From positions 2,592,001-2,656,000 of the forward strand of contig OY820591.1 of NCBI GenBank assembly GCA_963555985.3: 64,000 nucleotides of DNA, in the 5' to 3' direction. Below the pieces are notes generated by a model, which saw only the letters and a program-made list of their open reading frames with translations, did not search any database and had not been told where the DNA came from. The DNA comes from Dehalococcoidia bacterium (GTDB lineage Bacteria > Chloroflexota > Dehalococcoidia > Bin125). A program made the translations under genes and the position numbers. Of the stretch, positions 3,297 to 28,026 are shown one piece after another (the stretch's first letter is position 1; every line of letters starts with the position of its first letter).

Positions 3297-3297
3297 A

Positions 3298-4506: not shown

Positions 4507-4553
4507 CTCAGCTCCCCTGCTCCATGAAACGAGCGCCGATGCGAACGAAAGAA

Positions 4554-5204
4554 TCAGAGCGGCGGCACAGCCAGCGCGACCGCTGCCTGAATCTCGTCCA
4601 GCGCCCGGTTCACACTCAAACCGATCAAGTCCATCTTCGCCAACTGCTCGATCCGAGGCTCGATCCCCTCTAGATCGCGGCGCGGCAACAACAACTCCAA
4701 CAACCGGCTCGCACGCGCCAGACCGATCAACGCCACCTCTTCCGGCTCCGGAATCTCATCGCTCAACAGCACATCGATCAAGCGCCGGTGAATGTTGCGC
4801 GTCACCATCGGATCCACCGGCGGGTAACGTTCCGACTTGAACACCATCAAGCGGCGGCCCTGCTCCTTGCGCAGAATCCCGCGCGCAACCAGATCGTCCA
4901 GCTGCTGCTGGCGCAGCACCGGCGCATAGCGCGCAATCTCCGACACCCAGTACGAAGTCGGCTGATTCGGCATCCCGCTGTTGATATTGTTCAGCACCGC
5001 ATCGAACAGCGGGTTCCCGGTCGGAGATGCATCGACGATGAACAACCGCGAAAGATCCGTATCAACCCGCCCCATGAAGGACAGATCGATCAGCGCAGCG
5101 CCGGACACCGCGTAGTCGAGCCGCCCGTCGTAGGGACGATCCAACACCCCGTCTTCGCCGAGTCCAAGCAGAAGAATCTGGTCGCTGATAGTCAGGTCAG
5201 GCAC
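4554..5204 (-). CDS. GPP34 (Golgi phosphoprotein 3-like) family protein
   Basis: L-I-DQILLLGL...GAALIDL--MGRV, PTGNPLFDAVL and LVARGILRKEQGRRLMVFKSERYP match the family pattern as I recall it. Confidence 0.75.
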   Translation of the reverse strand: MPDLTISDQILLLGLGEDGVLDRPYDGRLDYAVSGAALIDLSFMGRVDTDLSRLFIVDASPTGNPLFDAVLNNINSGMPNQPTSYWVSEIARYAPVLRQQQLDDLVARGILRKEQGRRLMVFKSERYPPVDPMVTRNIHRRLIDVLLSDEIPEPEEVALIGLARASRLLELLLPRRDLEGIEPRIEQLAKMDLIGLSVNRALDEIQAAVALAVPPL

Positions 5205-5306
5205 GGGCGCTCCTGTTCAATCAGGCCGCGTCCCCGTCGGACTCGCAGCCGTACCGCGAGTGTAACCGCCCATCCCGAACCGCCCGCCAACACTCCTCAA
5301 TCGATC

Positions 5307-6422
5307 TCAGTCACCCAACCAAGGCTCAATCGTCACATTGACCGCCGCTTCCGACGTCTCACCCGCGAGCGTCGCGATCGCCTCAGCCGCGTTCTCCAAC
5401 CGGAACGCATGGGAATGCAACCGCTCCAACGGAAAACGCCCCGAAAGAATCACGTCAATCGCCCGCCGGAACGACTGGTGATCCACACCCAGCACACCCC
5501 GCACCGTCAATTGCCGCGTCACAATGTCGTCCGAGTTGAACTCCGGTACCCGGTGCGAACCCTTCAGCCCCGCCAATACGACCGTCCCGCCCCGCTTCGC
5601 CATCCGCATCGCGTCCGACACCGGCTGCGTCGCGTAGGGCGTGACATCCACCACCACATCCACTCCGCGCCCGTCCGTAGCCTCAAGCACTCGCTCGACC
5701 ACAGGCTCCGTCTCCGCGTTCAGAGTCAGATCCGCCCCAAATTCACGCGCAAGCGCCAGCTTGTGCTCGTCCCGCGAGAGGCCCGTCGCCACAATCGTGC
5801 CCGCTCCCGCAGCGCGAGCCGCAATGATCGAGCACAATCCCCGCTGACCCGACCCCAGCACCGCCACCGACTGTCCAACTTGTAATTGCGCCGCCGCCAC
5901 CGCCCAGGCAAACCCTGCCCCCAGCGGGTTGTAGAGCGCCGCCAGGCGCGGCGGCAGATCGTTCGGCATCGGATGCATCACCGTCGCCGGATGCAGATAC
6001 ATGTACTCCGCGTATCCGCCCCACAGACCGGGCGCGCGATCGGTCAGCGTGTAACCGTAGCCCGCTCCGTCCGCACACCGTCGCCCTTCCCCCTCGCGGC
6101 AATTCCGGCACTGCCCGCAGCGAACCCCCGGCTCCACCGACACCAAGTCGCCCACATCGACACCCCAACGCTCCGCCGCCCGTTCCCCCAGCGCCGCGAT
6201 CCGTCCAACCGGTTCATGCCCTGGAATCGTCGGAAAATTCGACGCAAACTCCCCGTTGAACTGCTCGTAGTCCGACCCGCAGATGCCGCATACTTCCATC
6301 CGCAGCAGTCCGTCGTCAGGCCCGATCTCCGGCAGCGAAAACGTCTGCAACTCCAACTCACGCACCGCGGTCAGCACCATCGCGCGGGCGCGATCGGGAA
6401 GCTCGGGCATGGAGGGCATCAC
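5307..6422 (-). CDS. Zinc-binding (MDR) alcohol dehydrogenase
   Basis: Motifs CGICGSD, PGHE, CGQCRNC...C and GSGQRG. Confidence 0.93.
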   Translation of the reverse strand: MMPSMPELPDRARAMVLTAVRELELQTFSLPEIGPDDGLLRMEVCGICGSDYEQFNGEFASNFPTIPGHEPVGRIAALGERAAERWGVDVGDLVSVEPGVRCGQCRNCREGEGRRCADGAGYGYTLTDRAPGLWGGYAEYMYLHPATVMHPMPNDLPPRLAALYNPLGAGFAWAVAAAQLQVGQSVAVLGSGQRGLCSIIAARAAGAGTIVATGLSRDEHKLALAREFGADLTLNAETEPVVERVLEATDGRGVDVVVDVTPYATQPVSDAMRMAKRGGTVVLAGLKGSHRVPEFNSDDIVTRQLTVRGVLGVDHQSFRRAIDVILSGRFPLERLHSHAFRLENAAEAIATLAGETSEAAVNVTIEPWLGD

Positions 6423-6430
6423 AAATCTCC

Positions 6431-7306
6431 TCAGCGCTGGTCGATCAACGGTTGCAGACGCGCGTTGCGCTCCATCGAAGCAGCCATGTGACGCACGCGC
6501 TCCTGCCCGATCTCCGTCTCCGGATCCTCATCCCAGCCGCGACCGCCCGCATCACGAATCCCGCCGTCCATCACCAGATACGAACCCGTCATGAAGTCGG
6601 CGTCGGGACCAACCAGGAACGCAATCAATCCGGCGATATCCGACGGCGCGCCCGACCGTCCGACCGGCGTCGCCGCCTCGAGCATCGTCCGAATCGGACC
6701 GCCCTCGTCGCCGGCGAGCGCGTGCGCCAGGGGCGTGTCAATCACGCCCGGACCGATCGCATTGATGTTGATCCCATGCGGCCCCAAGTCCTGCGCCCAG
6801 CCCCGCACCATCATCGCCACGCCCGCCTTGGTCGCCGAATAGCTCCACATCATTCCGCTCGTATTCAGCGCCGCCAACGAGGAAATGCAGACGATCCGTC
6901 CGCCGTTCCCCTGCGCGACCATCCGCTGAGCCGCCGCTTGTACGGTCAGAAACACCCCCGTCAGGTTGATATCCACCTGATCCTGCCAGTCCTTCAGCTC
7001 CAACTCCAACACCGAGCCGCCCCGCCCGATCCCCGCATTGGCGACCGCGATGTCAAGCGAACCCAACTCCGCCACGCACTCGTCCGCAGCCGCTTGTACC
7101 TGCTCCTTCGAGGCCACATTGCACTGCACCACATGCGCCCGCCGCCCGAACTCCCGCACCATCGAAGCAGTCTCCGCAGCCGCCTCAAGGTCAATCTCCG
7201 CAACACAGACATCCGCCCCATCCCGAGCAAGCCGCAGCGCCGTCCCTTGCCCAATCCCGCTGCCCGATCCCGTAATGAACGCAACCCGCCCACTCAGATC
7301 AGCCAT
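6431..7306 (-). CDS. SDR family oxidoreductase
   Basis: Motifs TGSGSGIG, NAG and YSATK. Start ATG 7306 follows GGGAGGG. Confidence 0.94.
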   Translation of the reverse strand: MADLSGRVAFITGSGSGIGQGTALRLARDGADVCVAEIDLEAAAETASMVREFGRRAHVVQCNVASKEQVQAAADECVAELGSLDIAVANAGIGRGGSVLELELKDWQDQVDINLTGVFLTVQAAAQRMVAQGNGGRIVCISSLAALNTSGMMWSYSATKAGVAMMVRGWAQDLGPHGININAIGPGVIDTPLAHALAGDEGGPIRTMLEAATPVGRSGAPSDIAGLIAFLVGPDADFMTGSYLVMDGGIRDAGGRGWDEDPETEIGQERVRHMAASMERNARLQPLIDQR

Positions 7307-7380
7307 CACAACCCTCCCAAATTCCTGTGCGTCAAAAGCTACCGCAAACAGCACCCACTCCGTCGCTCTCGCCCTCACAT

Positions 7381-7514
7381 CGTCATACCCACGCCCACAG
7401 CACCGTCATACCCGCGCTTGCCGCGGAGCCTATCCCCGCGAAGGCGGGGATCACTCGCCGTGATCTGCATCGTCGTCGCTCACACAACGAGATTCCCGTG
7501 CGCGCAGAAATGAC
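7381..7514. repeat. REP-like palindrome, family A, with nested AGCCT hairpin
   Basis: CCGTCATACCCGCGCTTGCCGCGG, then AGCCTATCCCCGCGAAGGCGGGG, then an inverted partner GAGATTCCCGTGCGCGCAGAAATGAC. Confidence 0.75.
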
Positions 7515-7532
7515 AGAAGAGCTCCAACCCCC

Positions 7533-8546
7533 TCAAACCAACCCATACCCCCGATCCACTCCCTCCCCCTCACGCGACAACACACCCTCCTCCACCAACG
7601 CCTCCAGATGCGCCACCGTCTCCGACATCGCCATCGTCAACTGACCCCGATCATGCGCTCGCTTCGGAAACACCGCAATCGCAATCTCCTTGATCGTGCT
7701 CTTGCCCCCTGCCACCGCATCAACGATCTCGCCCCGCCGCACCTGGTGGTGCTCCAGAATCTCCCCCGCCCGTTCCGCCGGACGCTCAATGATCCGCTCA
7801 TGCGCCGGCAGCGCCACGCTCGGATTCAACTCCGCTACCAGCCCCAGCGACTGCTCGAACGCCGCCAACGGCGAGCGCTCGTCATCGGGCCACATCCCGA
7901 TGTGCGGCGTAATCCGCGCCAGCAGATGATCACCCGTGAACAGAATCTCCTCATCGCGGTCGAGCACGCACAGATGCCCGTCCGTATGTCCGGGCGTCCA
8001 CACCATCTCAAACTCACGCCCGCCGATCTCCAACACCTCGCCGCCCCGGATCAACGTCGGCTCCGGCGCAGGCAGATCGATCCCCTCCATCGCCTCCCGC
8101 ATCCGGCTGAACATCGAATCTTGCGGCTCGGCGCCGTTCGCAAACTCATGATCGTCGAGCGCCGCCGCCCAGCCCCCGGAGAACCGGCGCCGCGCCAACT
8201 CCGGGTTCATCGCCCGCATCATCTGCATCCGCCCCCAATCCGCCTCATGCACAAACACCTCAGTCCCGAACCGATGCTGCAACCAGCCCGCGAACGCCGT
8301 GTGATCCGGGTGATAGTGCGAAATGAACGCCGCCTCCAACCGCCGACCGTCCGTCAGCAGCGGCGCAATCTCCCGCTCAAGTATCTGCACCCCCTCAGGC
8401 GAGGGAAAACCCGTATCAAACATCGCCCAGCCACCGCCGGTCGCGATCAACCAGACATGCACATGCGCCAACGGCGGCGGCATCGGCAGCGTGAAGCGGC
8501 GCACGTTCGGCGGAAGCGGACTCTGGTCGTGAAAGGGAATCGTCAT
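7533..8546 (-). CDS. MBL-fold metallo-hydrolase with C-terminal winged helix
   Basis: Motifs SHYHPDH, TPGHTDGH, FTGDH and LPAH. ATGA overlap with the upstream permease. Confidence 0.92.
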   Translation of the reverse strand: MTIPFHDQSPLPPNVRRFTLPMPPPLAHVHVWLIATGGGWAMFDTGFPSPEGVQILEREIAPLLTDGRRLEAAFISHYHPDHTAFAGWLQHRFGTEVFVHEADWGRMQMMRAMNPELARRRFSGGWAAALDDHEFANGAEPQDSMFSRMREAMEGIDLPAPEPTLIRGGEVLEIGGREFEMVWTPGHTDGHLCVLDRDEEILFTGDHLLARITPHIGMWPDDERSPLAAFEQSLGLVAELNPSVALPAHERIIERPAERAGEILEHHQVRRGEIVDAVAGGKSTIKEIAIAVFPKRAHDRGQLTMAMSETVAHLEALVEEGVLSREGEGVDRGYGLV

Positions 8547-9691: not shown

Positions 9692-11139
9692 GGTGTCGCT
9701 CCCTCCCCGACAAGGCGGGCGCGGATCAGATCAATCGCAATGAAGCCGAATACGACAAAGAGCGCCGTGATACAGACAATCGCCTCAATCACCGGAACAT
9801 CGGCCTGATTCAGCCGCTGGATCAGCAGCAGCCCCAGACCGGGAATGTTGAACAGCAGCTCCAGCGTCATGTTCACCGCCAGGAACAGCGGCAGCCAGAA
9901 ACGCAGCGAGCCCAGCACACTCACAAGCAGGCGGCGCAGACAGGCGGACACGGCTTCGGCATCAAGCGAACGACTGATCGCGGCGGCAAACGCTCCAGCC
10001 AGGATCAGACCTCCGCTGAACGCTGGAATGACGTAGAGCTCGAGGAAGCCAACAGGCGATTTGGTGATATCTCTCGCGTCGGGATCCGTGAACGGAAGGT
10101 CCCAGAGGCCTCCCTCAAACACACCCCTCGGCACGACCAGCACAATCAGCAACAGCGCCAGCCAGACAGCCGGCACGACCACGGCGACGCTGGTCAAACC
10201 GCGACCGGCTGCTGCAAACACCCCCTCCCGCTGGCGCGAAGCGATCAGCCCCAACGGAACGCCGATCACGACCGCGAAGAGCAGCGAAAACAGGTTGAGT
10301 TGAACCGTGCGCGGCAGCGCACGAGCCGCGACTGACAGCGAGTCCTCCTGCGTCTGAAACGAAGGACGGTAATCAAAACGCACGACATCCCAGAGAAAGT
10401 CCTCGTATCGCGCAATCAGCGAGCGGTCAGCGCCGAGACGGTACCGGATCGCAGCCTCAGTGATCTTGGCCATCGGCAACATGATCACGTCGCCGTGGCG
10501 CAGGATCGTATCGGCCGCGAGCGCGCCCTCAGGATTGCCCGGCGTACCGGGCGGGTTCGCCTCGATGATGTCTGCCGCCTCAATCCGGTTGACGTAGGCG
10601 AGCTCAGCCACACTCAGCCCCTCATGCAACCTCAGCACCGTCCCGCTCGGCGCATAGGCGCGCCCATCCAACACTGCAAAGTCAATCCCGGGATTGCGCT
10701 CTCGCAGCAATGCCGCTCCCTCCTCCGCATCCTCCTCGCGCACGATCCGCCACTCCACCGCAAGCTCCGAGAGCCACCGGCCCGCAAGTACAGCAATCCG
10801 CGTGCCATGAGCGAGCGGCTCTTGAGCGCTGTGATCGGGGTTGAGCGTCAGCAGCTCAGACAGGGACAAGTTGTACTCGACCGCTATCTCGGCGAGCGTC
10901 TCTCCGACGGCGACCCGCACGCTCGTAACCCCCGCCTCGACCTCCCCGACGATCTCACTCAGCCGAGCCCCCGCCCCCTGATTCTCAAGATTGGCCAGCC
11001 TCTGCGTCAGGAAGTCCCCGGGTAGCGCATGAACCAGCACAAACACCAGCGAAACCGCCGCCCAAAGCGACAACAGCGCCAGCGCCAACCGGCCGGCGAT
11101 GCGTCCCCATCCCAAACCGGACTGTATCCGCCGCAACAT
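9688..11139 (-). CDS. DppB/OppB-like ABC permease with LysM-like domains, divergent, EAA motif absent
   Basis: Carries LPGD, LysM VAVGETLAEIAVEYNLSLSELLTLNP and ELLFNIPGLG. Start uncertain (11139 or 11184). Confidence 0.8.
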   Translation of the reverse strand: MLRRIQSGLGWGRIAGRLALALLSLWAAVSLVFVLVHALPGDFLTQRLANLENQGAGARLSEIVGEVEAGVTSVRVAVGETLAEIAVEYNLSLSELLTLNPDHSAQEPLAHGTRIAVLAGRWLSELAVEWRIVREEDAEEGAALLRERNPGIDFAVLDGRAYAPSGTVLRLHEGLSVAELAYVNRIEAADIIEANPPGTPGNPEGALAADTILRHGDVIMLPMAKITEAAIRYRLGADRSLIARYEDFLWDVVRFDYRPSFQTQEDSLSVAARALPRTVQLNLFSLLFAVVIGVPLGLIASRQREGVFAAAGRGLTSVAVVVPAVWLALLLIVLVVPRGVFEGGLWDLPFTDPDARDITKSPVGFLELYVIPAFSGGLILAGAFAAAISRSLDAEAVSACLRRLLVSVLGSLRFWLPLFLAVNMTLELLFNIPGLGLLLIQRLNQADVPVIEAIVCITALFVVFGFIAIDLIRARLVGEGATP

Positions 11140-12698: not shown

Positions 12699-14324
12699 CT
12701 AGGTGTAGCGAATCCGGGGGTCAATCAGCGCGTAGCTGATGTCGATGATGATGTTGATGATGATCACGAACAGCGCCAGGAAGAACACCATCGTCTGCAC
12801 CACCGGAATATCCGCCTGGTTGATCCGCTGAATCAGCAGCAGGCCGATGCCGGGGATGTTGAACAGCAGCTCGAGGATAATGTTCCCGCCTACCAGCGCC
12901 GCGATCTGCAAGCCGAGAATGCTGAGCACGTTCACCATCGCGTTGCGCATCGCGTGCCGCCGGATCACCGTGCGCTCGCGCAGACCCTTCGACCAGGCCG
13001 TACGCACGTAGTCCTGGCGCAGCACCTCAAGCAGCTCCGAGCGCGTAATCCGCATCAGACCCGCGCCCGCGGCGATCCCGCCCGCAACGGCGGGAATGGA
13101 ATAGAGCGCGAAGAATCCGGGCACGGAAGTGAAGATGCTGCGCGCATCCTCCGAGGTCAGCGGAATCGACCACAGCCCCCCTTCCGAAATCCCGCCTGGC
13201 GTCACCACGAAGATCAACATCGTCGCAATCCAGAACGAGGGCGCGGCCAGCGCCAGGATCGCAAACCCGCGCAGCCCGTAGTCGAGCGGGCGGTCCTGCC
13301 GCATCGCCGAGAGAATGCCGACCGGGAACGCGACCAGAATCGCCACGATCAGCGCGTAGATATTGAGGTGCAGCGTGCGCGGCAACGCCCGCACGAAGAT
13401 GTCGAGCGAGTCCTCCTGCGTCTGGAACGAGGGGCGGAATTTCAGCCGCACCGTCTCCCAGAGGAACTCCCCGTACTGCACGCCCAACGGTTTGTCGATC
13501 CCCAGCCGATTGCGAATGTTCGCCTCGGTGATCTTCGTCGTCGGCATAATGATCGCGTGCGCCGGAATCTCAACAACCGTTCCGGCCTCGAGCGGCTCAG
13601 CCGGATCGATCTGCGGATTGACCTTCTCCGTCCGATCCAACGGACGATTCGTGGCAACCGCGATGCTCTCTAGGGTGTCCCCCGCGTTGGCAGTGAAAGT
13701 CGTCGCCGGTTCGAGCGGCGTCGTCGCCGTGAGCGCCCCGTCAGGATTCGTCGGCACCCCCGTTGGATTCGCGGCGAGGATGTCCGACGCCTCAATCCGG
13801 TTGACGTGCGCCAACTCTTCCAGGTTGATGCTCGTGCGTAAGGTCAGCGTCGTCCCCGTCGGCGCATAGGGTTTGCCCTGATAGGTGGGGAAATCGACCT
13901 CCGGGTTGCGATCCAACAGGATCTGCACCCCCTCCTTCGCATCTTCAGGCAGCGTGATCCGTTGCGACACCGCGAGCTGTTCCAGCAGCTGGCCGGGAAT
14001 CAGGATGATCCGCGTGCCGGGCCGCAGGTCGCCGCCCGCTTCGAGGTCGGGGTTGGCCCGGAGCAGTTCCGAGACGCTGACACCGTTGGCCAGCGCGATG
14101 CTGTCAATCGTGTCGCCCGTGATCACCCGGTGAGTGGTGTCCTCAATCTCAATCTGGCCGATGATCTCCGACTCTCGCGTCTCCGCCCCCTGGTTCTCAA
14201 GGTTGGAGAGTTTGCGCGTGACGAAATCCCCCGGCAGCGCGCGCAGGGCGAGAAAGAGGAGTGAGACGACCAGCCAGATCGTGGGAATCACGAGGATGAT
14301 GCGTCGGATCAGGTACTGCTGCAT
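12699..14324 (-). CDS. DppB/OppB-like ABC permease with four LysM-like domains
   Basis: Motifs YLIRR, LPGD, DYVRTAWSKGL and DPRIRY. LysMs include HRVITGDTIDSIALANGVSVSELLRANP and TANAGDTLESIA...VNP. Confidence 0.92.
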   Translation of the reverse strand: MQQYLIRRIILVIPTIWLVVSLLFLALRALPGDFVTRKLSNLENQGAETRESEIIGQIEIEDTTHRVITGDTIDSIALANGVSVSELLRANPDLEAGGDLRPGTRIILIPGQLLEQLAVSQRITLPEDAKEGVQILLDRNPEVDFPTYQGKPYAPTGTTLTLRTSINLEELAHVNRIEASDILAANPTGVPTNPDGALTATTPLEPATTFTANAGDTLESIAVATNRPLDRTEKVNPQIDPAEPLEAGTVVEIPAHAIIMPTTKITEANIRNRLGIDKPLGVQYGEFLWETVRLKFRPSFQTQEDSLDIFVRALPRTLHLNIYALIVAILVAFPVGILSAMRQDRPLDYGLRGFAILALAAPSFWIATMLIFVVTPGGISEGGLWSIPLTSEDARSIFTSVPGFFALYSIPAVAGGIAAGAGLMRITRSELLEVLRQDYVRTAWSKGLRERTVIRRHAMRNAMVNVLSILGLQIAALVGGNIILELLFNIPGIGLLLIQRINQADIPVVQTMVFFLALFVIIINIIIDISYALIDPRIRYT

Positions 14325-14371: not shown

Positions 14372-16402
14372 CTAGGCGGGGTACTCAGGGTGGCTGGTGT
14401 CGAGCCAGAGTTCGTCGACCAGCTTGTGCCCGCTGTGAGCGAACTGATAGCTGTCTGCGCTCGCCTGGTACCAAGGCCAGGAAGCCTCGTTGGAGACCGG
14501 GTTCATCACGCCCGGACCGGGCGAGATGCCTTCCCAGCCCCAGTCGGGGTGAGTACCGAGCTGGATCTGGATCACTTCGTCGGCGAGCACCTTCTTGGCT
14601 TCGAGGTCGAGCGTGATCTTCATCTCTTCGGCGAGTTCGGTCACGCGCGGGTTCTCGTAGCTGTAGAAGTTCAGCGAACCGCCCGGAATCAGCCCGGCCA
14701 GCCAACGGGTTGTGGGGTCGAGATCATCGGGCGGGTTGGTCCAGCACGGAATCTGGCCCTGGAAGGTACCCTCAACCAGACGCTGGAGGAGCACGGTGTA
14801 GGGGTCGACGCCGATATCGAACTCGATCCCCATCGCCGATTCGTACATGTTCTTGCTGGTCTCGACGATGCCGGGGTAGCGCTGCTCCCAGACATCAGGC
14901 GCGAAGAGGCCGATGCTGCGTCCGGTGTCGCGGAAGCCGGTGGCGTCGACCAACTCGTTGACCATTTGCAGCTCGGCGTCGCGGTCGGGCCGGAAGCCGG
15001 GGATTTCCGAGATTGATTCCTGGTCGGGCGTCCAGAAGGTGGAGAACCAAGGAACCTCCGGCAAGACGCTGGGCTTGGCTGAGCCGAGGTAAACAGCGTC
15101 GATCATCAGGTAGCGGTCGGTGGCGATGTGGTACGCGGCCCAGAGCCGGCGGTCGACCCAGGGATTGCCGAGTCCGTCTTCGCCCTGCCAATCCGGGTTG
15201 AAGTTGCCGCGGATCATGATCGTGAAGCCGCCGCCGACCGTGTTGCGCTGCATTTGCGGGAAGTCTTCAAGCAGGCGCTCGATGATGCTGATGTCGAGCC
15301 AGGCGCCGTCGAGCTCCTTGTTGCGCACCGCCGTTTCGACCGCGGTCTGCTCAAAGAGGTTGAACAGTTCCCAACTGTCCGCGTAGGGCAACTGCTGGCC
15401 CCAGGCGTCTTGCTTCCAGTAATCCGGGTTGCGGTCGGCGACGAAGACCTCGGTCGGTTCGTAGCGCTGGGCGATGTAGGGCCCAGAGCCGGCGATGCGG
15501 AGGGTGGAAGGGTCGTCGCGCCAGACATCGGAGTCGAGACCCCATTCCTGGATGCCCTCGGGTGCGGCCATCCAGCCGAACGGACGCAGGAAGGTGGCCG
15601 AGAGATAGGTGGAGTCGATGCCGTCGGATTGGGTGAAGAGGGTCTGATCGTCGGTCGCTTCCGAGACCGCAATCTTGCGCCAACTGGAGAGGCCGAGGAA
15701 GGACCCGTCCTCGGCGCCGGTCGAGTCCGTCCCAGCGGTGAGCCGATCGACGTTGAACTTGATGTCCTGGGCCGTGATGTTGCGTCCGCCCTCGGTGGGA
15801 TAGGAGTCATGCCAGCGGGCGGCCGGGTCGATGGTAAAGATGTAGGTGGTGTCGTCGGGGATTTCGGGCAAGGCCGCGATATCCGCCTCCATCTCCGACT
15901 TTTCCTTGTTCTTCCAGCGGATCAGGTTGTTGTAGAGCATCGAGTGCATGAACTGGGTGGGGCCGAAGACGCCGCGGTGCGGATCCCAGTAGTCATGCGT
16001 CTCGATCGTGGTCGCGCGGCGTGCGACGCCGCCGTACTGCGGGACAGGGCCTTCGGCGACGGCCGCTTGCTGTTGTTGCTGCGCCTGCTGTTCGGCGGCG
16101 GCCTGCTCTTGCTGCTCAGCCTGCTGCGCCTGCTGCTCGGCGGCGGCCTGCTCTTGCTGCTGCTGGGCTTGCTGCTGAGCGGCCTGCTGCTGTTGCTGCT
16201 GCATCGCCTGCTGCTGAGCGGCCTGCTGCCGTTGCTGTTGCTGCTGGGCGACCTGGGCGACGCTGTCGTCGTCATCGTCGTCGCCGCAGCCGACCAGGGC
16301 CAGACCGGCCGCGCCGACGCCGGCGCGGCCCGAGGCGCGCAAGAGCGCCCGCCGGCTCATTCGGTTCCGCCGCATTCGCTGCCAGTAGTTGCGCTCGCTC
16401 AT
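14372..16402 (-). CDS. Family-5 ABC substrate-binding lipoprotein 1 (Tat leader, poly-Q linker)
   Basis: SRRALL twin-Arg, LVGC lipobox, poly-D then Q/A-rich linker, PQYGG, GSGPY and RNPDYW. Confidence 0.92.
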   Translation of the reverse strand: MSERNYWQRMRRNRMSRRALLRASGRAGVGAAGLALVGCGDDDDDDSVAQVAQQQQQRQQAAQQQAMQQQQQQAAQQQAQQQQEQAAAEQQAQQAEQQEQAAAEQQAQQQQQAAVAEGPVPQYGGVARRATTIETHDYWDPHRGVFGPTQFMHSMLYNNLIRWKNKEKSEMEADIAALPEIPDDTTYIFTIDPAARWHDSYPTEGGRNITAQDIKFNVDRLTAGTDSTGAEDGSFLGLSSWRKIAVSEATDDQTLFTQSDGIDSTYLSATFLRPFGWMAAPEGIQEWGLDSDVWRDDPSTLRIAGSGPYIAQRYEPTEVFVADRNPDYWKQDAWGQQLPYADSWELFNLFEQTAVETAVRNKELDGAWLDISIIERLLEDFPQMQRNTVGGGFTIMIRGNFNPDWQGEDGLGNPWVDRRLWAAYHIATDRYLMIDAVYLGSAKPSVLPEVPWFSTFWTPDQESISEIPGFRPDRDAELQMVNELVDATGFRDTGRSIGLFAPDVWEQRYPGIVETSKNMYESAMGIEFDIGVDPYTVLLQRLVEGTFQGQIPCWTNPPDDLDPTTRWLAGLIPGGSLNFYSYENPRVTELAEEMKITLDLEAKKVLADEVIQIQLGTHPDWGWEGISPGPGVMNPVSNEASWPWYQASADSYQFAHSGHKLVDELWLDTSHPEYPA

Positions 16403-16440
16403 CGCAATCTCCTTCTCGCGTTTTCCTCGGCGTGCGCGAA

Positions 16441-16471
16441 AGTGTAACCGATACGACAGGTTTGGTGACAA
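16441..16471 (-). promoter_or_regulatory. Putative sigma70-type promoter of SBP1
   Basis: Minus strand reads TTGTCA-19nt-TACACT and is conserved with the SBP2 upstream region. The spacer is longer than canonical. Confidence 0.4.
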
Positions 16472-16592: not shown

Positions 16593-18617
16593 TCAGGCCG
16601 GGTATTCGGGGTGGTCGGTGTCCAGCCAGGTGCTGAAGTGGTTGTGACCGGCGTGGGCGAACTGGAATGCGTCCTCGTTCGGGTGGTAGTAGGGCCAGCC
16701 CACGTTGTTGTTGATTGGATTCATCACGCCGATCGAGGGCGAAATGCCGTCCCAGCCATGATCAGGGTGGACGCCCATCATGAGCTGCACCACCTCGTCG
16801 GCCATCACCTTCTTCTCTTCGAGATCGAGCGTGACCTTCATCGTCTCGGCGATTTCGGTCACCCGCGGGTGCTCGTACTGATAGAGGTTGGATGAGCCGC
16901 CGGGGACGCGGCCGTTGAGCCAGGAACTGGTCGGGTCGAGGTCCGACGGTGGGTTGGTCCAACTCGGACCGTCACCGGGATAGGTACCTTCAACCAAGCG
17001 CTGGAGGATGACTGTGTAGGGCTGGAGGTCGATGTTGACCGTCAGACCCAGAGCGGACTCGTACATTCCCTTAATCGTCTCCACGATCCCTGGATAGCGC
17101 TGCTCCCAGACATCCGGCTCGATGATGTAGATCTCGCGCCCGCTGTCGCGGAAGCCGCTGGCGTCAACCAGATCGTTGGCGAGCTTGATGTCCGCATCTC
17201 GGTCGGGACGGTAGCCAGGCCAGGTGATGAGGTCATCCTCCTTCGGTGCCCAGAACGCTGAGAACCACGGAGTCTCGGGCAGTGAGGAAACCTTCGCCGA
17301 GCCAAGATAGACCGTGTCGATCATCAGATACCGGTCCGTGGCGGCATGGAATGCCGCCCACATGCGGCGATCGACCCAGGGGTTGCCTTCCCCATCCTCA
17401 CCCGGATAGTCGGGGTTGAAGTTTGAGCGGATCTGGATCGTGAATCCACCTGCGGTGGTTCGCTTGACCAGTTGCGGAAAGTCGTTGGTCAGCGCATCGG
17501 TCAGGGCGACATCGAGACCGACAGCGTCAATCTCTTTCGTCCGCATTGCTGTGTCCTGCGCCGTCGGCTCCCAGAGCTCGATGTAGTGGAACTCATCCAA
17601 GTAGGGCAGCTGTTGGCCCCAGTCGTCGTACTTCCAGAAGTCCGGGTTGCGCCGCACGATCAAGCGGTCGGTCGGCTCGAAGTACTCGGCGATGTATGGG
17701 CCCGAGCCAGCGACGCGGAGTACAGTCTGTTCGTCGCGCCAGAGGTCGGTTTTGTAGCCCCACTCGTCAATCCCCTCCGGTGCCGCAATCCAGCCGAACG
17801 GATTGAGCACGGAGGCGGAGAGGAAGGTCGAATCGACGCCGCCGGACTTGAGTGTGAGCGTGCGATCGTCGATCACCTCCGTCTCGGCGATCTTGCGCCA
17901 ACTCGAGGCGGAGAGGAACGTCGAGTCTTCAGTGCCGGTGGAGTCGAACGCATTAACCTGACGCTCAATGTTGTAGTCGATATCCGTCGCCGTGACTTCG
18001 CGCCCGCCCTCAGTCGGGAACTGGTCATGCCAGCGCGCGCCGTCAACGACGGTGAAGATGTAGGTCTCCCCATCAGGGATTTCCGGTAACTCGGCCAGGT
18101 CAGAGGCCATGATGGCCTGCTCTTTGTTGGCCCAACGGATGATGTAGTTGTAGACCCAGCCGTGCATGAACTGCGTCGGGCCGAACACGCCGCGATGCGG
18201 GTCCCAGTAGTCGTGCGTGCTTACGGGGCCGCCGAAGCGGAGCGTGCCGCCGTACTTGGGCCGCTCGCCCGCGGCCATAGCCTGCTGCTGCTGTTCTTCC
18301 TGCTGTTCGGCGACAGTCTGCTCTTGCTGCTCAGCCTGCTGCGCCTGCTGCTCAGCGGCGGCCTGCTGCTGTTGCTGCTGAGCTTGCTGCTGCGCCGCCT
18401 GCTGCTGTTGCTGCTGCTGGGCTTGCTGCTGAGCGGCCTGCTGCCGTTGCTGTTGCTGCTGGGCGACCTGGGCGACGCTGTCGTCGTCATCGTCGTCGCC
18501 GCAGCCGACCAGGGCCAGACCGGCCGCGCCGACGCCGGCGCGGCCCGAGGCGCGCAAGAGCGCCCGCCGGCTCATCCGATTCCACCGCATTCGTTGCCAG
18601 TAGTTGCGCTCGCTCAT
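16593..18617 (-). CDS. Family-5 ABC substrate-binding lipoprotein 2
   Basis: Same leader and linker as SBP1. Motifs PKYGGTL, GSGPY and RRNPDFW. Confidence 0.92.
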   Translation of the reverse strand: MSERNYWQRMRWNRMSRRALLRASGRAGVGAAGLALVGCGDDDDDDSVAQVAQQQQQRQQAAQQQAQQQQQQQAAQQQAQQQQQQAAAEQQAQQAEQQEQTVAEQQEEQQQQAMAAGERPKYGGTLRFGGPVSTHDYWDPHRGVFGPTQFMHGWVYNYIIRWANKEQAIMASDLAELPEIPDGETYIFTVVDGARWHDQFPTEGGREVTATDIDYNIERQVNAFDSTGTEDSTFLSASSWRKIAETEVIDDRTLTLKSGGVDSTFLSASVLNPFGWIAAPEGIDEWGYKTDLWRDEQTVLRVAGSGPYIAEYFEPTDRLIVRRNPDFWKYDDWGQQLPYLDEFHYIELWEPTAQDTAMRTKEIDAVGLDVALTDALTNDFPQLVKRTTAGGFTIQIRSNFNPDYPGEDGEGNPWVDRRMWAAFHAATDRYLMIDTVYLGSAKVSSLPETPWFSAFWAPKEDDLITWPGYRPDRDADIKLANDLVDASGFRDSGREIYIIEPDVWEQRYPGIVETIKGMYESALGLTVNIDLQPYTVILQRLVEGTYPGDGPSWTNPPSDLDPTSSWLNGRVPGGSSNLYQYEHPRVTEIAETMKVTLDLEEKKVMADEVVQLMMGVHPDHGWDGISPSIGVMNPINNNVGWPYYHPNEDAFQFAHAGHNHFSTWLDTDHPEYPA

Positions 18618-18655
18618 TGCAACTCTCCTCCTGCGTTCGCCATGACGTGCGCCGA

Positions 18656-18686
18656 ATTGTAACCCATACCACAGGTGTAGAGACAA
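18656..18686 (-). promoter_or_regulatory. Putative sigma70-type promoter of SBP2
   Basis: Minus strand reads TTGTCT-19nt-TACAAT and shares ACCTGT.GTAT.GGTTACA with the SBP1 upstream region. Confidence 0.4.
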
Positions 18687-18793: not shown

Positions 18794-20806
18794 TTAGGCC
18801 GGATAGTCCTCGTGGGTGGTGTCGAGCCAGGCCTCGTCGAAGAGGTGTGAGGCGTGGGCGAACTGGATCGTGTCATCGGGCCGGTGCATGTACGGCCACC
18901 AGACGCTGCGCTGGACGGCATTCATGACGCCAAAGGATGCGAAGATGCCGTCCAGACCGTGATCCGAATCGACTCCCATGCCAATCTGCTGGATTTTCCG
19001 CGCCATCGTCTTGCGCTCCTCGGTGTCGAGCGTGACCTGCATCTCCTGGACAATCTCGGAGACGGGCTCGTACTCGTAGTGCCAGAGGTTGGTGGACCCG
19101 CCAGGCAGGAGTTGACGCACCCAGTCGCCGGTGGGATCGAGGTCCGAGGGCGGGTTGGTCCACTGCGGCCCGCTTCCGGGATACGTACCGTCCTGCAGCC
19201 GCTGGAGAATGACCGTATACGGCTGAACGTCCCAGTGGATCGGAATCCCGAGCGCCTCCTCATACATCGTCTTCTCTGTTTCGAGGATGCCGGCGGAGGT
19301 CGATTCCCAGAGATCTGGGGCGATGATCGTCAGGGTTCGGTCCTTGTCGTAGCCGGTGGCGTCAATCAGTTCGCGCGCCAAAGCCACGTCGAGGTCTCGG
19401 TCTGGCCGATAACCGGGGAAGGTGATGAGCTCGTCCTGCGGGATGCCCCAAGCCGTGTTGAACCAGGGGCACATTTCGTTCGCGCTGATCTTGGCCGAGC
19501 CGAGATAGACAGCATCGATCATCAGGTAGCGATCGAGGGCCACATGGAAGGCGTAGGCGAATCGGCGATCGAGCCAGGGATTGCCCAGACCGTCTTCCCC
19601 CGGCCAATCGGGATTGAAGTTGGCCCAGTTGGTGATGATCGTGTAGCCGAAGGCGACCTCTGCCGTTGGATGTTCGGGGAAGTCCTTCGAGATTTCATCG
19701 ACCTGGAGAGCCGTGAGCGGCCAGTCGCCGTACATCAGCTCGTTGCTGCGGTAGGCGGTTTCGACCGCGGTCGGATCGGTGATCCGGTCCATGCGGAAGC
19801 CGTCAGGATAGGGAAGCATGCCGCCGTCGGCGCCCGGCTTCCAATAGTTAGAGTTGGCCACCATGTTGATCGCGATGTCGGGGTCATAGTCGACCGGGAT
19901 GTACGCGCCGGTGCCAGAGGAGAGTTCGACATTCTGCGCTTCATCGCGCCAGCGGTCGCCGAACTCGGCCATTGCCTCGGGTGATGTGATCCAGGAGAAC
20001 GGCCGCAGGATCGCGCCGAGATAGGTTGCGTCAGCGCCGTCCGTCTTGGCGATGAAGGTGGTTTCGTCGGGCGTGTCCATCGAGACGGTCTTGCGGAAGG
20101 CGTCGGCGCCGAGGAACGTGCCGTCCTCCGCGCCGGTGGCGTCGACCGCATCGATCTGGCGCTGGAAGTTGGCGACGATGTCTTGCGAGGTCACCAGCCG
20201 TCCGCCCTCAGTGGGATAACGATCCCAGAAGCTGGCACCCTGATCGAGCAGGAAGATGTATGTCTCGTTGTCGGGGATCTCGGGCAGGGCGGCGACATCG
20301 GCCTCCATGATCCCCTTCTCCTTGTTCCGCCAACGGATGAGGTAGTTCATGTACAACCCCATCCAGTACTGGACCGGACCGAAGACGCCGCGGTGCGGGT
20401 CGAAGTAGTCCATGTCCATCGGCCCGGAAAAGCGCAGCGTGCCGCCGCGGATGATGTTCGAGGCGACCGCTGCCTGCTGCTGGTCAGCCGCTTGATCGTC
20501 CGCCGTCGCTTCTTGCTGGTCGGCTTGCTCTGCCTGCTCGGCCGCCGCCTGTTGCTGCTGCTCCTGCGCCTGTTGCTCTGCCGCCTGCTGCTGTTGCCGA
20601 CCCTGAGTCTGTCGTTCGGCCGCTTGCTGTTGTTGCCGCTCTTGTTGGGCAACCTGCGAGACCGCGCCGCCGTCGTCATCGTCGTCGCCGCAGCCAACGA
20701 GTGCGAGGCCGGCAGCGCCAACCCCAGCTCGCCCCGAGGCGCGCAGGAGCGCCCGCCTGCTCATTCGGCTCCGCCGCATTCGCTGCCAGTAGTTGCGTTC
20801 CTGCAT
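18794..20806 (-). CDS. Family-5 ABC substrate-binding lipoprotein 3
   Basis: Leader MQERNYWQRMRR..SRRALL..LVGC, Q-rich linker, RGGTL and SGTGAY. Confidence 0.92.
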   Translation of the reverse strand: MQERNYWQRMRRSRMSRRALLRASGRAGVGAAGLALVGCGDDDDDGGAVSQVAQQERQQQQAAERQTQGRQQQQAAEQQAQEQQQQAAAEQAEQADQQEATADDQAADQQQAAVASNIIRGGTLRFSGPMDMDYFDPHRGVFGPVQYWMGLYMNYLIRWRNKEKGIMEADVAALPEIPDNETYIFLLDQGASFWDRYPTEGGRLVTSQDIVANFQRQIDAVDATGAEDGTFLGADAFRKTVSMDTPDETTFIAKTDGADATYLGAILRPFSWITSPEAMAEFGDRWRDEAQNVELSSGTGAYIPVDYDPDIAINMVANSNYWKPGADGGMLPYPDGFRMDRITDPTAVETAYRSNELMYGDWPLTALQVDEISKDFPEHPTAEVAFGYTIITNWANFNPDWPGEDGLGNPWLDRRFAYAFHVALDRYLMIDAVYLGSAKISANEMCPWFNTAWGIPQDELITFPGYRPDRDLDVALARELIDATGYDKDRTLTIIAPDLWESTSAGILETEKTMYEEALGIPIHWDVQPYTVILQRLQDGTYPGSGPQWTNPPSDLDPTGDWVRQLLPGGSTNLWHYEYEPVSEIVQEMQVTLDTEERKTMARKIQQIGMGVDSDHGLDGIFASFGVMNAVQRSVWWPYMHRPDDTIQFAHASHLFDEAWLDTTHEDYPA

Positions 20807-20978: not shown

Positions 20979-22991
20979 TTAGGCGGGGTAGTCCGGGTGG
21001 TTGACGTCAATCCAGGATTCGTCGTAGCGGTGGCTGGCGTGGGCGAACTGGAGGATGTCGTCGCTGTGGTGGACGAACGGCCACCAGAGCACCGGTGAGA
21101 TGCCGTTCATCACGCCGGGGATTGTGGTGATGCCGTCCAAGCCGTGGTCGGGATGCGTGCCGAGCAGGATCCGCTGCGCGGTGTGGGACATATCCCGCCG
21201 CTTCTCGCGATCGAGCGTGACGCGCATCTCGCGGGCCAGGTCCGCCATCGGCTCATAGCCGTAGAAGAGCGTGTTGACCGAGCCCTCGGGCGTGAAGAAG
21301 TCGTTATAGGGCGCGGTCGGGTCGAGCTCGGCGGGCGGATTGCCCCACTGCGGACCGCTGCCCGGGTAAGTCCCGTCGACGAAGCGCTGGAGAATCACCG
21401 TGTAGGGTTGCACGTCGAACTCGACCTCGAGGTCAAGCGCATTGCGGTACATCCCCACTTCGGTCTCCAGCACGCCGGGATAGGTGGACTCCCAGAGGTC
21501 GGGCGCGATCATGCGCAGACCGCGGCTGCGGTCGTAGCCGGAGGCGTCGAGCAGCGCCCGCGCTTCGGCGATGTCGGTCTCGCGGTCGGGCCGGAAGCCC
21601 GGCGTCTGCAAGAGTTCCTCATCGGGAATCGCCCAATAGGTGCTGTACCAGGGCGTGTCGTGCAGGCCTGAGGGCTTGCCTGAGCCGAGATAGACCGTAT
21701 CGATCATCAGGTACGGGTCGACGGCGATACCCAGGGACTTGGCGAAGCGTCGGTCGAGCCAGGGGTTGCCCAAACCGTCCTCACCAGGCCAGTCTGGGTT
21801 GTAGTTGACCAGCGTGATGATCGTGAACCCGAACGCGATCTGGCCGTGGTTGTGGTCCGGGAAGTCTTCAACAATGCCCTCGGCCTGGAGCGTCGTGAGT
21901 GGGAAGCGCCCGTTGAGGATCTCTTTGCCGCGGTAGGCGGCGTCGATCGTGGTCGAGTCCTCCATGTTCGCCAGGGTGACGGAGTCGTAATAGGGCAGCG
22001 GTTGGCCGTCGAGCCCCATCTTCCAGTAGTCGGGGTTGCGGATCATGCTCAGGCCGATATCGGGGTCGTAGCTCTGGGGAATAAACATCCCGGTGCCGGA
22101 GGAGAGCTCGATGTTGCCCGCCTCATCGCGCCAGCGGTCGCCGAACTCACGGATCGCCTCGGGGCTGGTGATCCAGCTGAAGGGTCGCAGCGGGACGCCG
22201 ATCCAAGTCGCATCGGGGCCGTCCGTCCTAGCGACCCAGGTGGTGTCGTCGGGCACGTCCATCGAAGCGGTGCGGCGGAACGCGCCCGAGCTGAGGAAGG
22301 TGCCGTCATCGGCGCCGGTCGCATCCACCGCGTCGATCTGGCGCTGGTAGTTGACGCGGATGTCCTCGGATGTCACCAGCCGCCCGCCCTCGGTCGGATA
22401 CTGATCCCAGAAGCGCGCGCCCTGGTCAATGCTGAAGATGTAGGTCTCGTCGTCAGGAATCTCCGGCAGCGAGGCGATGTCTGGCTCGGCGAGGTCCTGT
22501 TCCTTGTTGCGATAGCGGATGAGGTAGTTCATGTAGAACCCCATCCAGAACTGGGTCGTGCCGAACACGCCGCGGCCCGGGTCGAAGTAGTCGTGCGTCG
22601 CCGCCGGCGTGGAGAAGGTCAGATCGCCGCCGCGGACGATCTCCGACACCATCGCCTGCTGTTGTTCTTCAGCATCGGCGACCGTCTGTTCCTGCTGGTC
22701 GGCCTGCTCTGCCTGCTGCTCGGCGGCCGCCTCCTGTTGCTCTTGCCGAGCTTGCTGCTGCGCGGCCTGCTGCTGTTGTCGCTGCTGGGCCTGCTGTTGC
22801 ATCGCCTGCTGTTGCTGCTGACGCTGCGCGGCGGATTGGGAAACCGACTGCTGACTGTCGTCGTCATCGTCGCCGCAGCCGACCAGCGCCAATCCGGCCG
22901 CGCCGACGCCGGCGCGACCCGAGGCGCGCAAGAGCGCACGCCTGCTCATTTGCTTCCACCGCATTCGCTGCCAGTAGTTTCGCTCACTCAT
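20979..22991 (-). CDS. Family-5 ABC substrate-binding lipoprotein 4
   Basis: Same leader, with GAGGAGAGG RBS before ATG 22991. Motif RNPDYW. Confidence 0.92.
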   Translation of the reverse strand: MSERNYWQRMRWKQMSRRALLRASGRAGVGAAGLALVGCGDDDDDSQQSVSQSAAQRQQQQQAMQQQAQQRQQQQAAQQQARQEQQEAAAEQQAEQADQQEQTVADAEEQQQAMVSEIVRGGDLTFSTPAATHDYFDPGRGVFGTTQFWMGFYMNYLIRYRNKEQDLAEPDIASLPEIPDDETYIFSIDQGARFWDQYPTEGGRLVTSEDIRVNYQRQIDAVDATGADDGTFLSSGAFRRTASMDVPDDTTWVARTDGPDATWIGVPLRPFSWITSPEAIREFGDRWRDEAGNIELSSGTGMFIPQSYDPDIGLSMIRNPDYWKMGLDGQPLPYYDSVTLANMEDSTTIDAAYRGKEILNGRFPLTTLQAEGIVEDFPDHNHGQIAFGFTIITLVNYNPDWPGEDGLGNPWLDRRFAKSLGIAVDPYLMIDTVYLGSGKPSGLHDTPWYSTYWAIPDEELLQTPGFRPDRETDIAEARALLDASGYDRSRGLRMIAPDLWESTYPGVLETEVGMYRNALDLEVEFDVQPYTVILQRFVDGTYPGSGPQWGNPPAELDPTAPYNDFFTPEGSVNTLFYGYEPMADLAREMRVTLDREKRRDMSHTAQRILLGTHPDHGLDGITTIPGVMNGISPVLWWPFVHHSDDILQFAHASHRYDESWIDVNHPDYPA

Positions 22992-23067
22992 GGAACCTCT
23001 CCTCGGAGCTGCATTGGTCGAACCTCGATTGCGGAAGGCTAGTGATTTTGAATCGGCCTCTCCGCCG

Positions 23068-26544: not shown

Positions 26545-28026
26545 CTAGGCGTAACGGATGCGCGGGTCGATCAGCGCGTAGCTGATGTCGACCAGGATGT
26601 TGATGACGATCACAAAGAGGGCGAGGAAAAAGACGATCGTGGCGATCACGGGCGTGTCGGCTTGGTAGATGCGCTGCAAGAGGGCGAGACCGACGCCGGG
26701 AATGTTGAACAACACCTCCAGAATGATGTTCCCGCCGACCAGCGCCGCCGCCTGGAGTCCGAACACGCTGAGCACGGGCACCATCGCATTGCGCAGCGCG
26801 TGGCGGCGGATCACGGAGCGCTCGCGCAGACCTTTCGACCAGGCTGTGCGGACGTAATCCTGACGCAAGACTTCAAGCAGCTCGGAGCGGGTGATGCGCA
26901 TCAACCCAGCTCCGGCGGCGATGCCGCCGGCGACGGCAGGGATGGTATAGAGCGCAAAGAACCCGGGTACCGAGGTGAAGATGCTGCGCGCCTCCTCTTC
27001 CGCGAGCGGAATCGACCAGAGACCGCCGTCGAAGAGCGAACCGGGCGAGACCACGAAGATCAACATCGTCGCGGTCCAGAAGGGCGGCGCGGCGAGCGCG
27101 AAGATCGCGAAGCCGCGCAGCAGGTAATCGGGCGCGCGGTCCTGCCGCATGGCGGAGTAGACGCCCACCGGGAGCGCGACGATCACGGCCACGATCAGGG
27201 CGTAGATGTTGAGATGGAGCGTACGCGGAAGCGTGCGCAGGAAGATGTCCATCGACGGTTCATTGGTCTGGAACGACGGCCGGAACTTGAGCCGGATCGT
27301 GTCCCAGATGAACTCGATGTACTGGATGCCGAGCGGCTTGTCGAGTCCCAGTCGGTGCTTCACCGAACTCTCGGTGATCTCGCGCGTAGGAGCGATGATC
27401 GTCGCACCGGGCAGCAGCGGTGTCTCGGCGGTCAGTGAACCGTCTTCGTTAGACGGTGTGCCGACGAGATTGACGTTCAGATAATCCTCAGCGGTGACAC
27501 GGTTGACCTTCGCAAGTTCATTAATGGTCGTGGACTCGCGCAGGGTCAGGATGCTGCCGCCGGGCGCGTAGGGTTCGCCAGCGAACGTGGGGAAGTCAAT
27601 CTGGGGGTTGCGCTCGATCAGCAACGCCACGCCCTGATCGGTCTCCTCAGGCAGCGCGAGCCGCTGCTGCTTGGAGATCACCGAGAGCAGTTGGCCGTCG
27701 ATGATGATGAGGTTGCTGCCGGGCCGCAGCTCGGAGTCGACGTCATAGCGCGGATTGAGTCCGAGGATGTGGTCGGCGCCGATCCCGTACTGGAGCGCGA
27801 GCGACTCGATCGTGTCTCCGGCCACGACGCGGTGGAGGGTGCGATCAGCCTCGATTTCGCCGACGATCTCGGCCGGCTGCGTGGTCGCGCCGGAAGCTTC
27901 GAGGTTGGAAAGTTTGATCGTGACGTAGTCGCCGGGCAGGAGGTTGACGCCCAAGAAGAGCAGGGAGATCACCAGCCAAAGGGTGGGGATCACGAGCAGA
28001 ATGCGGCGAATCAGGTACTTCTGCAT
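26545..28026 (-). CDS. DppB/OppB-like ABC permease with three LysM-like domains
   Basis: LysM HRVVAGDTIESLALQYGIGADHILGLNP. Motifs DYVRTAWSKGL and DPRIRY. Confidence 0.92.
   Translation of the reverse strand: MQKYLIRRILLVIPTLWLVISLLFLGVNLLPGDYVTIKLSNLEASGATTQPAEIVGEIEADRTLHRVVAGDTIESLALQYGIGADHILGLNPRYDVDSELRPGSNLIIIDGQLLSVISKQQRLALPEETDQGVALLIERNPQIDFPTFAGEPYAPGGSILTLRESTTINELAKVNRVTAEDYLNVNLVGTPSNEDGSLTAETPLLPGATIIAPTREITESSVKHRLGLDKPLGIQYIEFIWDTIRLKFRPSFQTNEPSMDIFLRTLPRTLHLNIYALIVAVIVALPVGVYSAMRQDRAPDYLLRGFAIFALAAPPFWTATMLIFVVSPGSLFDGGLWSIPLAEEEARSIFTSVPGFFALYTIPAVAGGIAAGAGLMRITRSELLEVLRQDYVRTAWSKGLRERSVIRRHALRNAMVPVLSVFGLQAAALVGGNIILEVLFNIPGVGLALLQRIYQADTPVIATIVFFLALFVIVINILVDISYALIDPRIRYA

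Follow-up and report, generated by a model that had tools for sequence, protein, structure and literature searches.

In type I ATP-binding cassette (ABC) importers, recognition of the substrate is credited to the binding protein. MalF, a permease of the maltose importer, which belongs to this class, has a large additional domain in the periplasm; this domain, the P2 loop, contacts the binding protein. Only recently has a permease element, the scoop motif of Escherichia coli DppB, been shown to be active in hand-over (PMC12136057). In the published account of DppABCDF, the scoop motif is a periplasmic helix–loop–helix formed by DppB residues 32–62, from transmembrane helix 1 (TM1) to the short helix alpha3; it is disordered and unresolved in resting DppBCDF and fills the cleft of DppA in the ATP-analogue state, residues E41 and R42 bridging ligand-binding residues of DppA, and its deletion impairs complementation and lowers ATPase activity to about one-quarter (PMC12136057). 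Here we describe a stretch of 64 000 nucleotides from a Dehalococcoidia bacterium (GenBank assembly GCA_963555985.3, contig OY820591.1, positions 2,592,001 to 2,656,000 of the forward strand; hereafter the window, with a G+C content of about 64 %), in which three genes on the minus strand encode permeases of the DppB/OppB type with 180–230 extra residues between TM1 and the remaining membrane domain. Two of the products, P0001 and P0003, are almost certainly B-type permeases of a PepT-family (Dpp/Opp/Nik-like) importer in which a compact array of LysM-fold units, joined without linkers, has enlarged the scoop region. The array exists, faces the outside, has a single origin and is kept by selection.

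The family to which these proteins belong is clear from the membrane domain. P0001 (541 aa; 12699..14324, minus strand) matches E. coli DppB (8z1v) with an E value of 8e-43 in a phmmer search of PDB sequences, and a Foldseek search with its full model returned DppB/OppB chains as the eight top matches, followed by Ecp6 and CERK1. The membrane domain of P0001 (12702..13424, minus strand; PF00528, 130.4 bits, residues 333–539) and that of P0003 (493 aa; 26545..28026, minus strand; PF00528, 128.1 bits), a paralog 69 % identical to P0001, are both of the B type and both include a coupling (EAA) helix that aligns with that of E. coli DppB; this segment is present in the paralog clades that we term A and B. 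In the third paralog, the degenerate 518-residue open reading frame (ORF) P0002 (9688..11244, minus strand), PF00528 scores only 28.3 bits and the coupling helix has been deleted. No curated equivalog gives the permease a substrate class: the best score, 236.6 bits to NF045470 (Opp2B), lies below the cutoff of 350, and the score of 163.6 bits to the DppB model NF008161 lies below its cutoff of 590, and ‘DppB’ is therefore used as a family-level label only.

The position of the extra residues follows from the same comparison. In the phmmer alignment, residues 1–35 of P0001 pair with DppB residues 1–35 and residues 268–540 with DppB residues 50–337, and about 232 residues therefore replace residues 36–49 of the E. 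coli protein. TM1 (residues 9–27; 14244..14300, minus strand; hydropathy 2.84), which AlphaFold2 extends to a helix of residues 2–28, aligns within DppB residues 1–35. It is followed by residues 32–61 (14142..14231, minus strand), comprising a helix (residues 32–44) and a conserved linker with a beta-hairpin (strands 51–53 and 57–59), in which the first part of the scoop region is retained. Beyond the LysM-fold units, residues 257–300 (13425..13556, minus strand) form helices (262–274 and 280–292) that rejoin the DppB fold from DppB residue 50 onward, with a partial match to PF19300 (BPD_transp_1_N) at residues 268–292. A sequence-only reading of this DNA had placed LysM arrays at 13530–14140 in the first extracytoplasmic loop of DppB; this interval corresponds to residues 62–265 of P0001 on the minus strand, and the ranges that it gave for the paralogs correspond to the equivalent region of the P0003 and P0002 ORFs. 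The extracytoplasmic location is borne out by homology to DppB of solved structure and by a charge bias, the P0001 loop being net acidic (26 Lys+Arg against 42 Asp+Glu) and TM1 being preceded by two basic residues. The P2 loop of MalF, which belongs to another permease family, occupies another loop and has an Ig-like fold, is an analogy only. Read together, the phmmer alignment and the description of the scoop motif place the array inside the element that contacts the binding protein, which is a more specific site than the first outside loop (PMC12136057). Thus P0001 shares with the E. coli protein (PDB 8z1v–8z1z; PMC12136057) its family, its fold and the location of this region, which faces the binding protein from between TM1 and the short helix that precedes TM2, but where E. 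coli DppB has about 30 residues forming two short helices and a loop, the insert described here has about 232 with three or four LysM-fold modules, and the loop bearing E41 and R42 has no clear counterpart in P0001.

Modelling of P0001 by AlphaFold2 with a 99-sequence family alignment gave a mean predicted local distance difference test score (pLDDT) of 77.7, with 84–92 over residues 50–260, and rendered the insert as four successive beta–alpha–alpha–beta units that abut one another without linkers. When the insert alone was modelled with a 30-sequence alignment, the pLDDT was 86.2 and the predicted template modelling (pTM) score 0.72; across models the pLDDT of the insert was 84–95 overall. 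All four units are thereby predicted to have the LysM fold of about 45 residues. With the insert model as query, Foldseek returned nine matches at E≤0.001, seven of which were to LysM proteins (Ecp6 4b8v, the Thermus thermophilus NlpC/P60 protein 4uz2 twice, CERK1 4eby, 5ls2, CERK6 9qrs and LYR4 9gxz), the remaining two being to one trypanosome mitoribosomal chain. Single modules matched with template modelling (TM) scores of 0.8–0.88 and root-mean-square deviations of 1.1–1.6 Å. Alignments of the insert to three-LysM ectodomains extended over 190–250 columns with global TM scores of only 0.19–0.26, and the packing of the three-module matches therefore differs. These compact ectodomains (Ecp6 4b8v, AtCERK1 4eby, CERK6 and LYR4) are nevertheless the best structural matches, at 220–250 columns, and resemble the insert in that their modules are packed together rather than strung like beads; they are, however, soluble effectors or receptor ectodomains, whereas the P0001 insert sits in a transporter loop and has neither cysteines nor disulfides. 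Bacterial wall LysM modules (T. thermophilus NlpC/P60 4uz2/4uz3, MltD 1e0g, YkuD and AtlA) resemble single modules of the insert with TM scores of up to 0.84 and 43 % identity, but these are appended to wall hydrolases, usually through flexible linkers (PMC4083421), whereas those of P0001 are embedded in a polytopic membrane protein.

The four units, all encoded on the minus strand, differ greatly in how readily they are recognized from sequence. Units were scored on fragments of about 58 residues against Pfam PF01476 (LysM, CBM50), for which the gathering score is 20.9. Unit 1 (residues 62–110; 13995..14141) is canonical, with scores of 39.5 bits (E 5.6e-10) in P0001, 33.6 bits in P0003 and 21.9 bits in P0002, and in phmmer searches it matched the LysM modules of T. 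thermophilus NlpC/P60 (4uz2/4uz3), MltD (1e0g) and YkuD (E 1.3e-6 to 5.6e-4). Unit 4 (residues 210–256; 13557..13697), also canonical, is a 48-residue addition confined to the 541-aa clade; it passes marginally in P0001 (21.2 bits) and has no equivalent in P0003 or P0002, where the inserts comprise units 1–3 only (about 27388–27843 and about 10474–10929, respectively). Whole proteins gave LysM scores of 54.2 bits in two stretches (P0001), 31.7 bits (P0003) and 19.4 bits (P0002). The Gly-Asp-Thr motif is at least 95 % conserved in unit 4, and its Gly and Thr are at least 90 % conserved in unit 1; units 1–3 each have an invariant Asn behind helix 2. Unit 2 (residues 111–164; 13833..13994) has about eight extra residues between its helices (predicted strand 111–113, helices 114–120 and 126–139, strand 151–155), and unit 3 (residues 165–209; 13698..13832; predicted helices 168–174 and 179–185, strand 208–211) is the most conserved of the four.

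Comparison of units cut from the family alignment by hhalign related unit 1 to units 4, 2 and 3 with probabilities of 98, 88 and 85 %, respectively, and gave no match between units 2 and 3. When profiles of the units were run against 142 ordinary tandem-LysM proteins, which had themselves been chosen with the insert profile, unit 1 was found in 142/142, unit 4 in 140/142, unit 3 in 7/142 and unit 2 in 1/142, with reversed and shuffled controls at 0/142 each; the top domain for the unit 3 profile scored 15 bits, against no more than 3.6 for the controls. In the ESM Atlas, eight of the nine named clusters listed for units 2 and 3 were LysM clusters and one had no common Pfam family (scores 0.82–0.84), which we treat as a lead only. 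By these scores units 1 and 4 qualify as bona fide LysM modules and unit 3 as a detectable LysM derivative, and unit 2 is LysM-like only in its predicted fold and in a single profile comparison; the best description of units 2 and 3, on indirect grounds, is as family-specific derivatives of the LysM fold, ‘LysM-like’ but not members of the Pfam family. The expectation that the array would match PF01476 thus held for units 1 and 4 and failed for units 2 and 3, and the proposal that the latter two are divergent LysM-like units is upheld by the predicted fold and by hhalign, with Pfam silent. The copy numbers of four, three and three given in the sequence-only reading for P0001, P0003 and P0002 were also correct.

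A search with the insert alone returned 97 proteins at E≤0.001, and 96 of these were permeases of the insert-bearing family, with lengths of about 540 aa in 65, about 493 aa in 22 and 442–480 aa in the other nine; PF01476 already appears in the precomputed annotation of 91 of the 96. The few members with a name from their source are called ‘ABC transporter permease subunit’ and come from Chloroflexota (or Chloroflexi) genome bins, with one ‘peptide/nickel transport system permease protein’. Our search of the full-text literature found no description of LysM modules in an ABC permease, and automatic domain labels are the only trace of the architecture. When 1.84 billion representatives were searched with a profile, 11,200 matches were returned; among the best 150 of these, only four full-length proteins and four fragments were one-stretch permeases, and the remainder were ordinary multi-LysM proteins such as NlpC/P60 enzymes (12 checked with Pfam). 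The genome scan found 28 insert-bearing loci in 26 isolates, all labelled Dehalococcoidia, Chloroflexota or Chloroflexi bacterium, in keeping with the earlier guess that the relatives are Dehalococcoidia, and the insert was kept in every related genome bin found. The nearest insert-less relatives, several of them titled Tepidiformaceae, are 40–42 % identical; in the eight used for a check of size, with L071 standing outside, the B permease has about 315–320 aa where the start is clear (loci L031, L032, L036 and L037), other B ORFs being inflated by upstream starts, and the C permease has 297–318 aa.

A tree was computed by a quick method from 49 locus-derived proteins over 493 columns, with the unit 4 columns dropped and four insert-less proteins as outgroups; the 96 database proteins, the near-duplicates L006 and L015, the partial L028 and seven B-type ORFs whose starts are extended were left out. 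Insert-bearing proteins formed one clade with support 100, which indicates a single origin of the insert. Within it, the 541-aa form with unit 4 is a single clade (support 98), the 492-aa group, which occupies the same operon position and lacks unit 4, is another (support 97), and the degenerate group is a third (support 100) on a long stem (length 1.31); the basal order was not resolved. The idea that the LysM units form a labile repeat is ruled out by the constancy of unit number within each paralog clade, and copy number is therefore a fixed trait of old paralogs. For 16 orthologs (120 pairs), the pairwise ratio of non-synonymous to synonymous substitution (dN/dS) was 0.174 for the insert, with 0.17–0.21 for each unit, and 0.055 for the membrane domain, values to be read with the caution that synonymous sites are probably near saturation; they point to purifying selection on the insert. 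Ten insert positions are invariant across 99 sequences. The best-conserved parts of the insert region are unit 3, which has the lowest entropy of the units, and the linker (residues 34–61), and residues 32–61 as a whole are conserved like the membrane domain (mean top-residue frequency 0.86, against 0.87).

The genes around P0001 suggest that the permease is one part of a larger remodelled system. Between about 8.5 and 30.3 kb all genes lie on the minus strand and follow one another, with Pfam assignments, in the order SBP_bac_5 (28234–30321), P0003, a 414-aa DppC-type permease (25273–26517), five further SBP_bac_5 genes (23126–25159, 20979–23231, 18794–20806, 16593–18686 and 14372–16471), P0001, P0101 (11403–12647), P0002 and P0102 (8543–9691), after which come genes for a metallo-beta-lactamase (MBL)-fold hydrolase, a short-chain dehydrogenase/reductase (SDR), a zinc-dependent alcohol dehydrogenase (Zn-ADH), a GPP34 protein, an acyl-CoA dehydrogenase and a CoA-transferase. 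Each of the 18 related loci whose contig extends further has, after the 541-aa gene and in this order, a gene for a DppC of 412–414 aa, a binding-protein gene, a B gene of about 493 aa and a gene for a DppC of 405–417 aa.

P0101, the 414-aa DppC-type partner of P0001 (PF00528, 88.5 bits at residues 230–411), and the partner of P0003, which has the same length, is 70 % identical to P0101 (PF00528, 94.5 bits) and carries the same insert, both have about 146 residues in the first outside loop (residues 65–210 of P0101), some 100 more than insert-less relatives. This loop is net acidic, helical by eye and conserved in 39 sequences; it matched no Pfam family and had no informative neighbour in the ESM Atlas (scores ≤0.84). 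By this comparison the partner DppC carries a family-specific insert of its own alongside that of the B permease.

The C permease and six SBP_bac_5 genes adjoin the B permease. All six binding proteins have a near-identical twin-arginine (Tat) signal, a lipobox, an acidic (Asp) run and a tether of about 90 residues, 50–65 % of which are Gln and Ala, ahead of the SBP_bac_5 domain, features from which the binding proteins are taken to be lipid-anchored on long tethers. PF00496 scores are 86.6 bits for the protein encoded directly upstream of P0001, 103.8 bits for that upstream of P0003 and 80–123 bits for the other four; the 750-aa ORF at 20979–23231 overlaps its neighbour, and its true start is probably about 80 codons later. 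Against NCBIfam the binding proteins fit no curated substrate class (best score 37.7 bits, cutoffs ≥600), and a phmmer search of the PDB gave three weak matches, the best with E 4.6e-5. Our statements on gene content rest on Pfam scans of about 40 ORFs of the window and 12 ORFs of related loci (L007, L014, L018 and L024), among which there was no importer-type (DppD/DppF-like) ATPase; the ATPases must be encoded elsewhere. Within the window, ABC ATPase domains occur solely in genes of the exporter type (31453–35034 and 37727–39226).

The pair P0002/P0102 stands apart. A deletion of 19–21 residues that covers the coupling helix is common to all six members of its clade (clade C), and translation of P0002 probably starts about 35 codons into the ORF. 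P0102 (382 aa) is a degenerate DppC-like protein with no Pfam match at E≤0.001; its N-terminal loop motifs are as in P0101 and its coupling-helix region is degraded. Without the coupling helix this pair should be unable to engage an ATPase. Its outside inserts are retained, and the pair also occurs in five other loci and in the protein database. The P0002/P0102 clade has evolved fast, as its stem shows, and yet has persisted in at least five other genomes.

We tentatively favour a composite reading of the array, because units 1 and 4 still bear the hallmarks of sugar binding and yet the site is one of contact with the binding protein, where the non-canonical parts are the most conserved. The conserved linker and units 2 and 3, probably together with the DppC insert, would stand as a rigid pedestal where binding proteins dock on the translocator and would display units 1 and 4, which retain features of LysM modules that bind glycans of N-acetylglucosamine (GlcNAc). 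LysM modules recognize the GlcNAc-X-GlcNAc of peptidoglycan and chitin, with a sugar groove built from the loop joining strand 1 to helix 1 and that joining helix 2 to strand 2 (PMC4083421). The translocator could in this way be held against, or sample, a GlcNAc polymer beside the docking site of the tethered binding proteins; in a cell with peptidoglycan this polymer would be its own wall, and in one without, foreign peptidoglycan or chitin fragments. Glycan binding by units 1 and 4 is plausible, and we give that step an even chance.

A number of observations weigh against this reading. The conserved LysM residues are also structural, and their conservation is thus no proof of sugar binding. 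Units 2 and 3 lack Gly-Asp-Thr in the strand 1–helix 1 loop, which lines the sugar groove, six fragments of these units from the three proteins gave no LysM-clan Pfam match even at E≤10, and unit 2 has almost no sequence signal at all. Scanning of the window and locus ORFs revealed no genes for catabolism of GlcNAc, N-acetylmuramic acid (MurNAc) or muropeptides and none for glycoside hydrolases, and the conserved neighbours encode an MBL-fold hydrolase, SDR, Zn-ADH, acyl-CoA dehydrogenase and CoA-transferase. In the survey of six Chloroflexi genomes, as reported, SAR202 was without peptidoglycan genes and CBM50/LysM was recorded only in Anaerolineae and Caldilineae (PMC6306507), so that either the lineage studied here differs or such modules were missed in that survey. 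A cell devoid of both peptidoglycan and any other GlcNAc polymer would offer no obvious resident ligand. The published accounts describe peptidoglycan synthesis as ancestral in Dehalococcoidia; basal orders, Tepidiformales among them, have kept it, and its loss is placed in the ancestor shared by Dehalococcoidales and the marine radiation with SAR202 (PMC10284905, PMC10608941), and the cultured SAR202 strains are reported to be devoid of peptidoglycan genes (PMC10444878).

The insert lies within the scoop motif, and protein docking is therefore a serious rival, or complement, to glycan binding; a docking role is equally consistent with the data. In the pure form of this reading, the LysM fold would serve as a rigid scaffold in place of the scoop, or as an extension of it, and would select, orient or gate the six binding proteins on their long tethers, with no glycan bound. 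We regard this as possible, if somewhat doubtful in that exclusive form. The scoop of E. coli contacts the cleft of the binding protein and transport suffers when it is deleted (PMC12136057), it is the non-canonical unit 3 and the linker (residues 34–61) that are best conserved, the linker-free units are predicted as one body (pTM 0.72), DppC bears a co-occurring insert, and the six binding-protein paralogs, with their shared signals and tethers, flank two intact permease pairs; but units 1 and 4 are good LysM modules at the level of sequence with a conserved groove motif, which a pure scaffold need not keep. That the array is instead a functionless or decaying insertion, tolerated in a flexible loop, seems to us hardly credible: the scoop region is indeed flexible and unresolved in resting DppBCDF (PMC12136057), and one paralog pair, P0002/P0102, is clearly degenerate, yet the low dN/dS of every unit, the ten invariant positions, the high-confidence predicted fold and the retention of the insert in all related bins from 26 isolates speak against decay.

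Elsewhere, murein peptides and chitobiose are among the cargoes of PepT-family systems, and the importer might likewise take up muropeptides or chitooligosaccharides, with the array concentrating GlcNAc-bearing molecules at the mouth of the pore or handing them over. The recognition of GlcNAc-X-GlcNAc by LysM (PMC4083421) and the location of the array in the entrance region fit such substrate capture, but the scanned ORFs offer no GlcNAc/MurNAc catabolic or glycoside hydrolase gene, and the binding proteins fall into no curated substrate class; we consider it rather unlikely. Bolder still, and improbable in our estimation, is the possibility that, in a lineage without peptidoglycan of its own, a crown of LysM modules grips foreign wall or chitin debris and the translocator shares in substrate recognition, the whole being a dedicated machine for scavenging peptidoglycan-derived material.

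Other features of the window may be recorded here. Genes of a catabolic paralog type flank the transporter cluster at 1–8546 (minus strand) and 50055–53333, and include those for a family III CoA-transferase, an acyl-CoA dehydrogenase, an SDR, a Zn-ADH, an MBL hydrolase, an AMP-binding ligase and a luciferase-like monooxygenase; the MBL–SDR part of this flank is syntenic in related loci. Among the catabolic genes are one for a Fic/DOC-domain protein with a C-terminal helix–turn–helix-like region (1256–2443, minus strand) and one for a GPP34 (Golgi phosphoprotein 3 family) homolog (4554–5204, minus strand). A single ORF of 232 aa (36127–36825, minus strand) joins a nucleotidyltransferase (PF01909) to a HepT-like RNase (PF01934), domains that are usually encoded by two separate toxin–antitoxin genes. 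On the plus strand, an ORF of 2020 aa (53988–60050; third-position G+C 0.92) consists mostly of fibronectin type III repeats (PF00041, 379 bits in six stretches).

A clade in which the scoop has been turned into an array of 180–230 residues of a carbohydrate-binding type is a natural experiment on the capabilities of this region of the permease, and the rest of the system has been remodelled as well, with an insert in DppC, long tethers on the binding proteins and an additional pair of permeases that lack coupling helices. Should the modules bind glycan, the context of the cell envelope or of a polymer would be read by a transporter's membrane subunit. If, in addition, the host is without peptidoglycan, the ligand must be foreign, which would bear on how abundant uncultured Dehalococcoidia feed.

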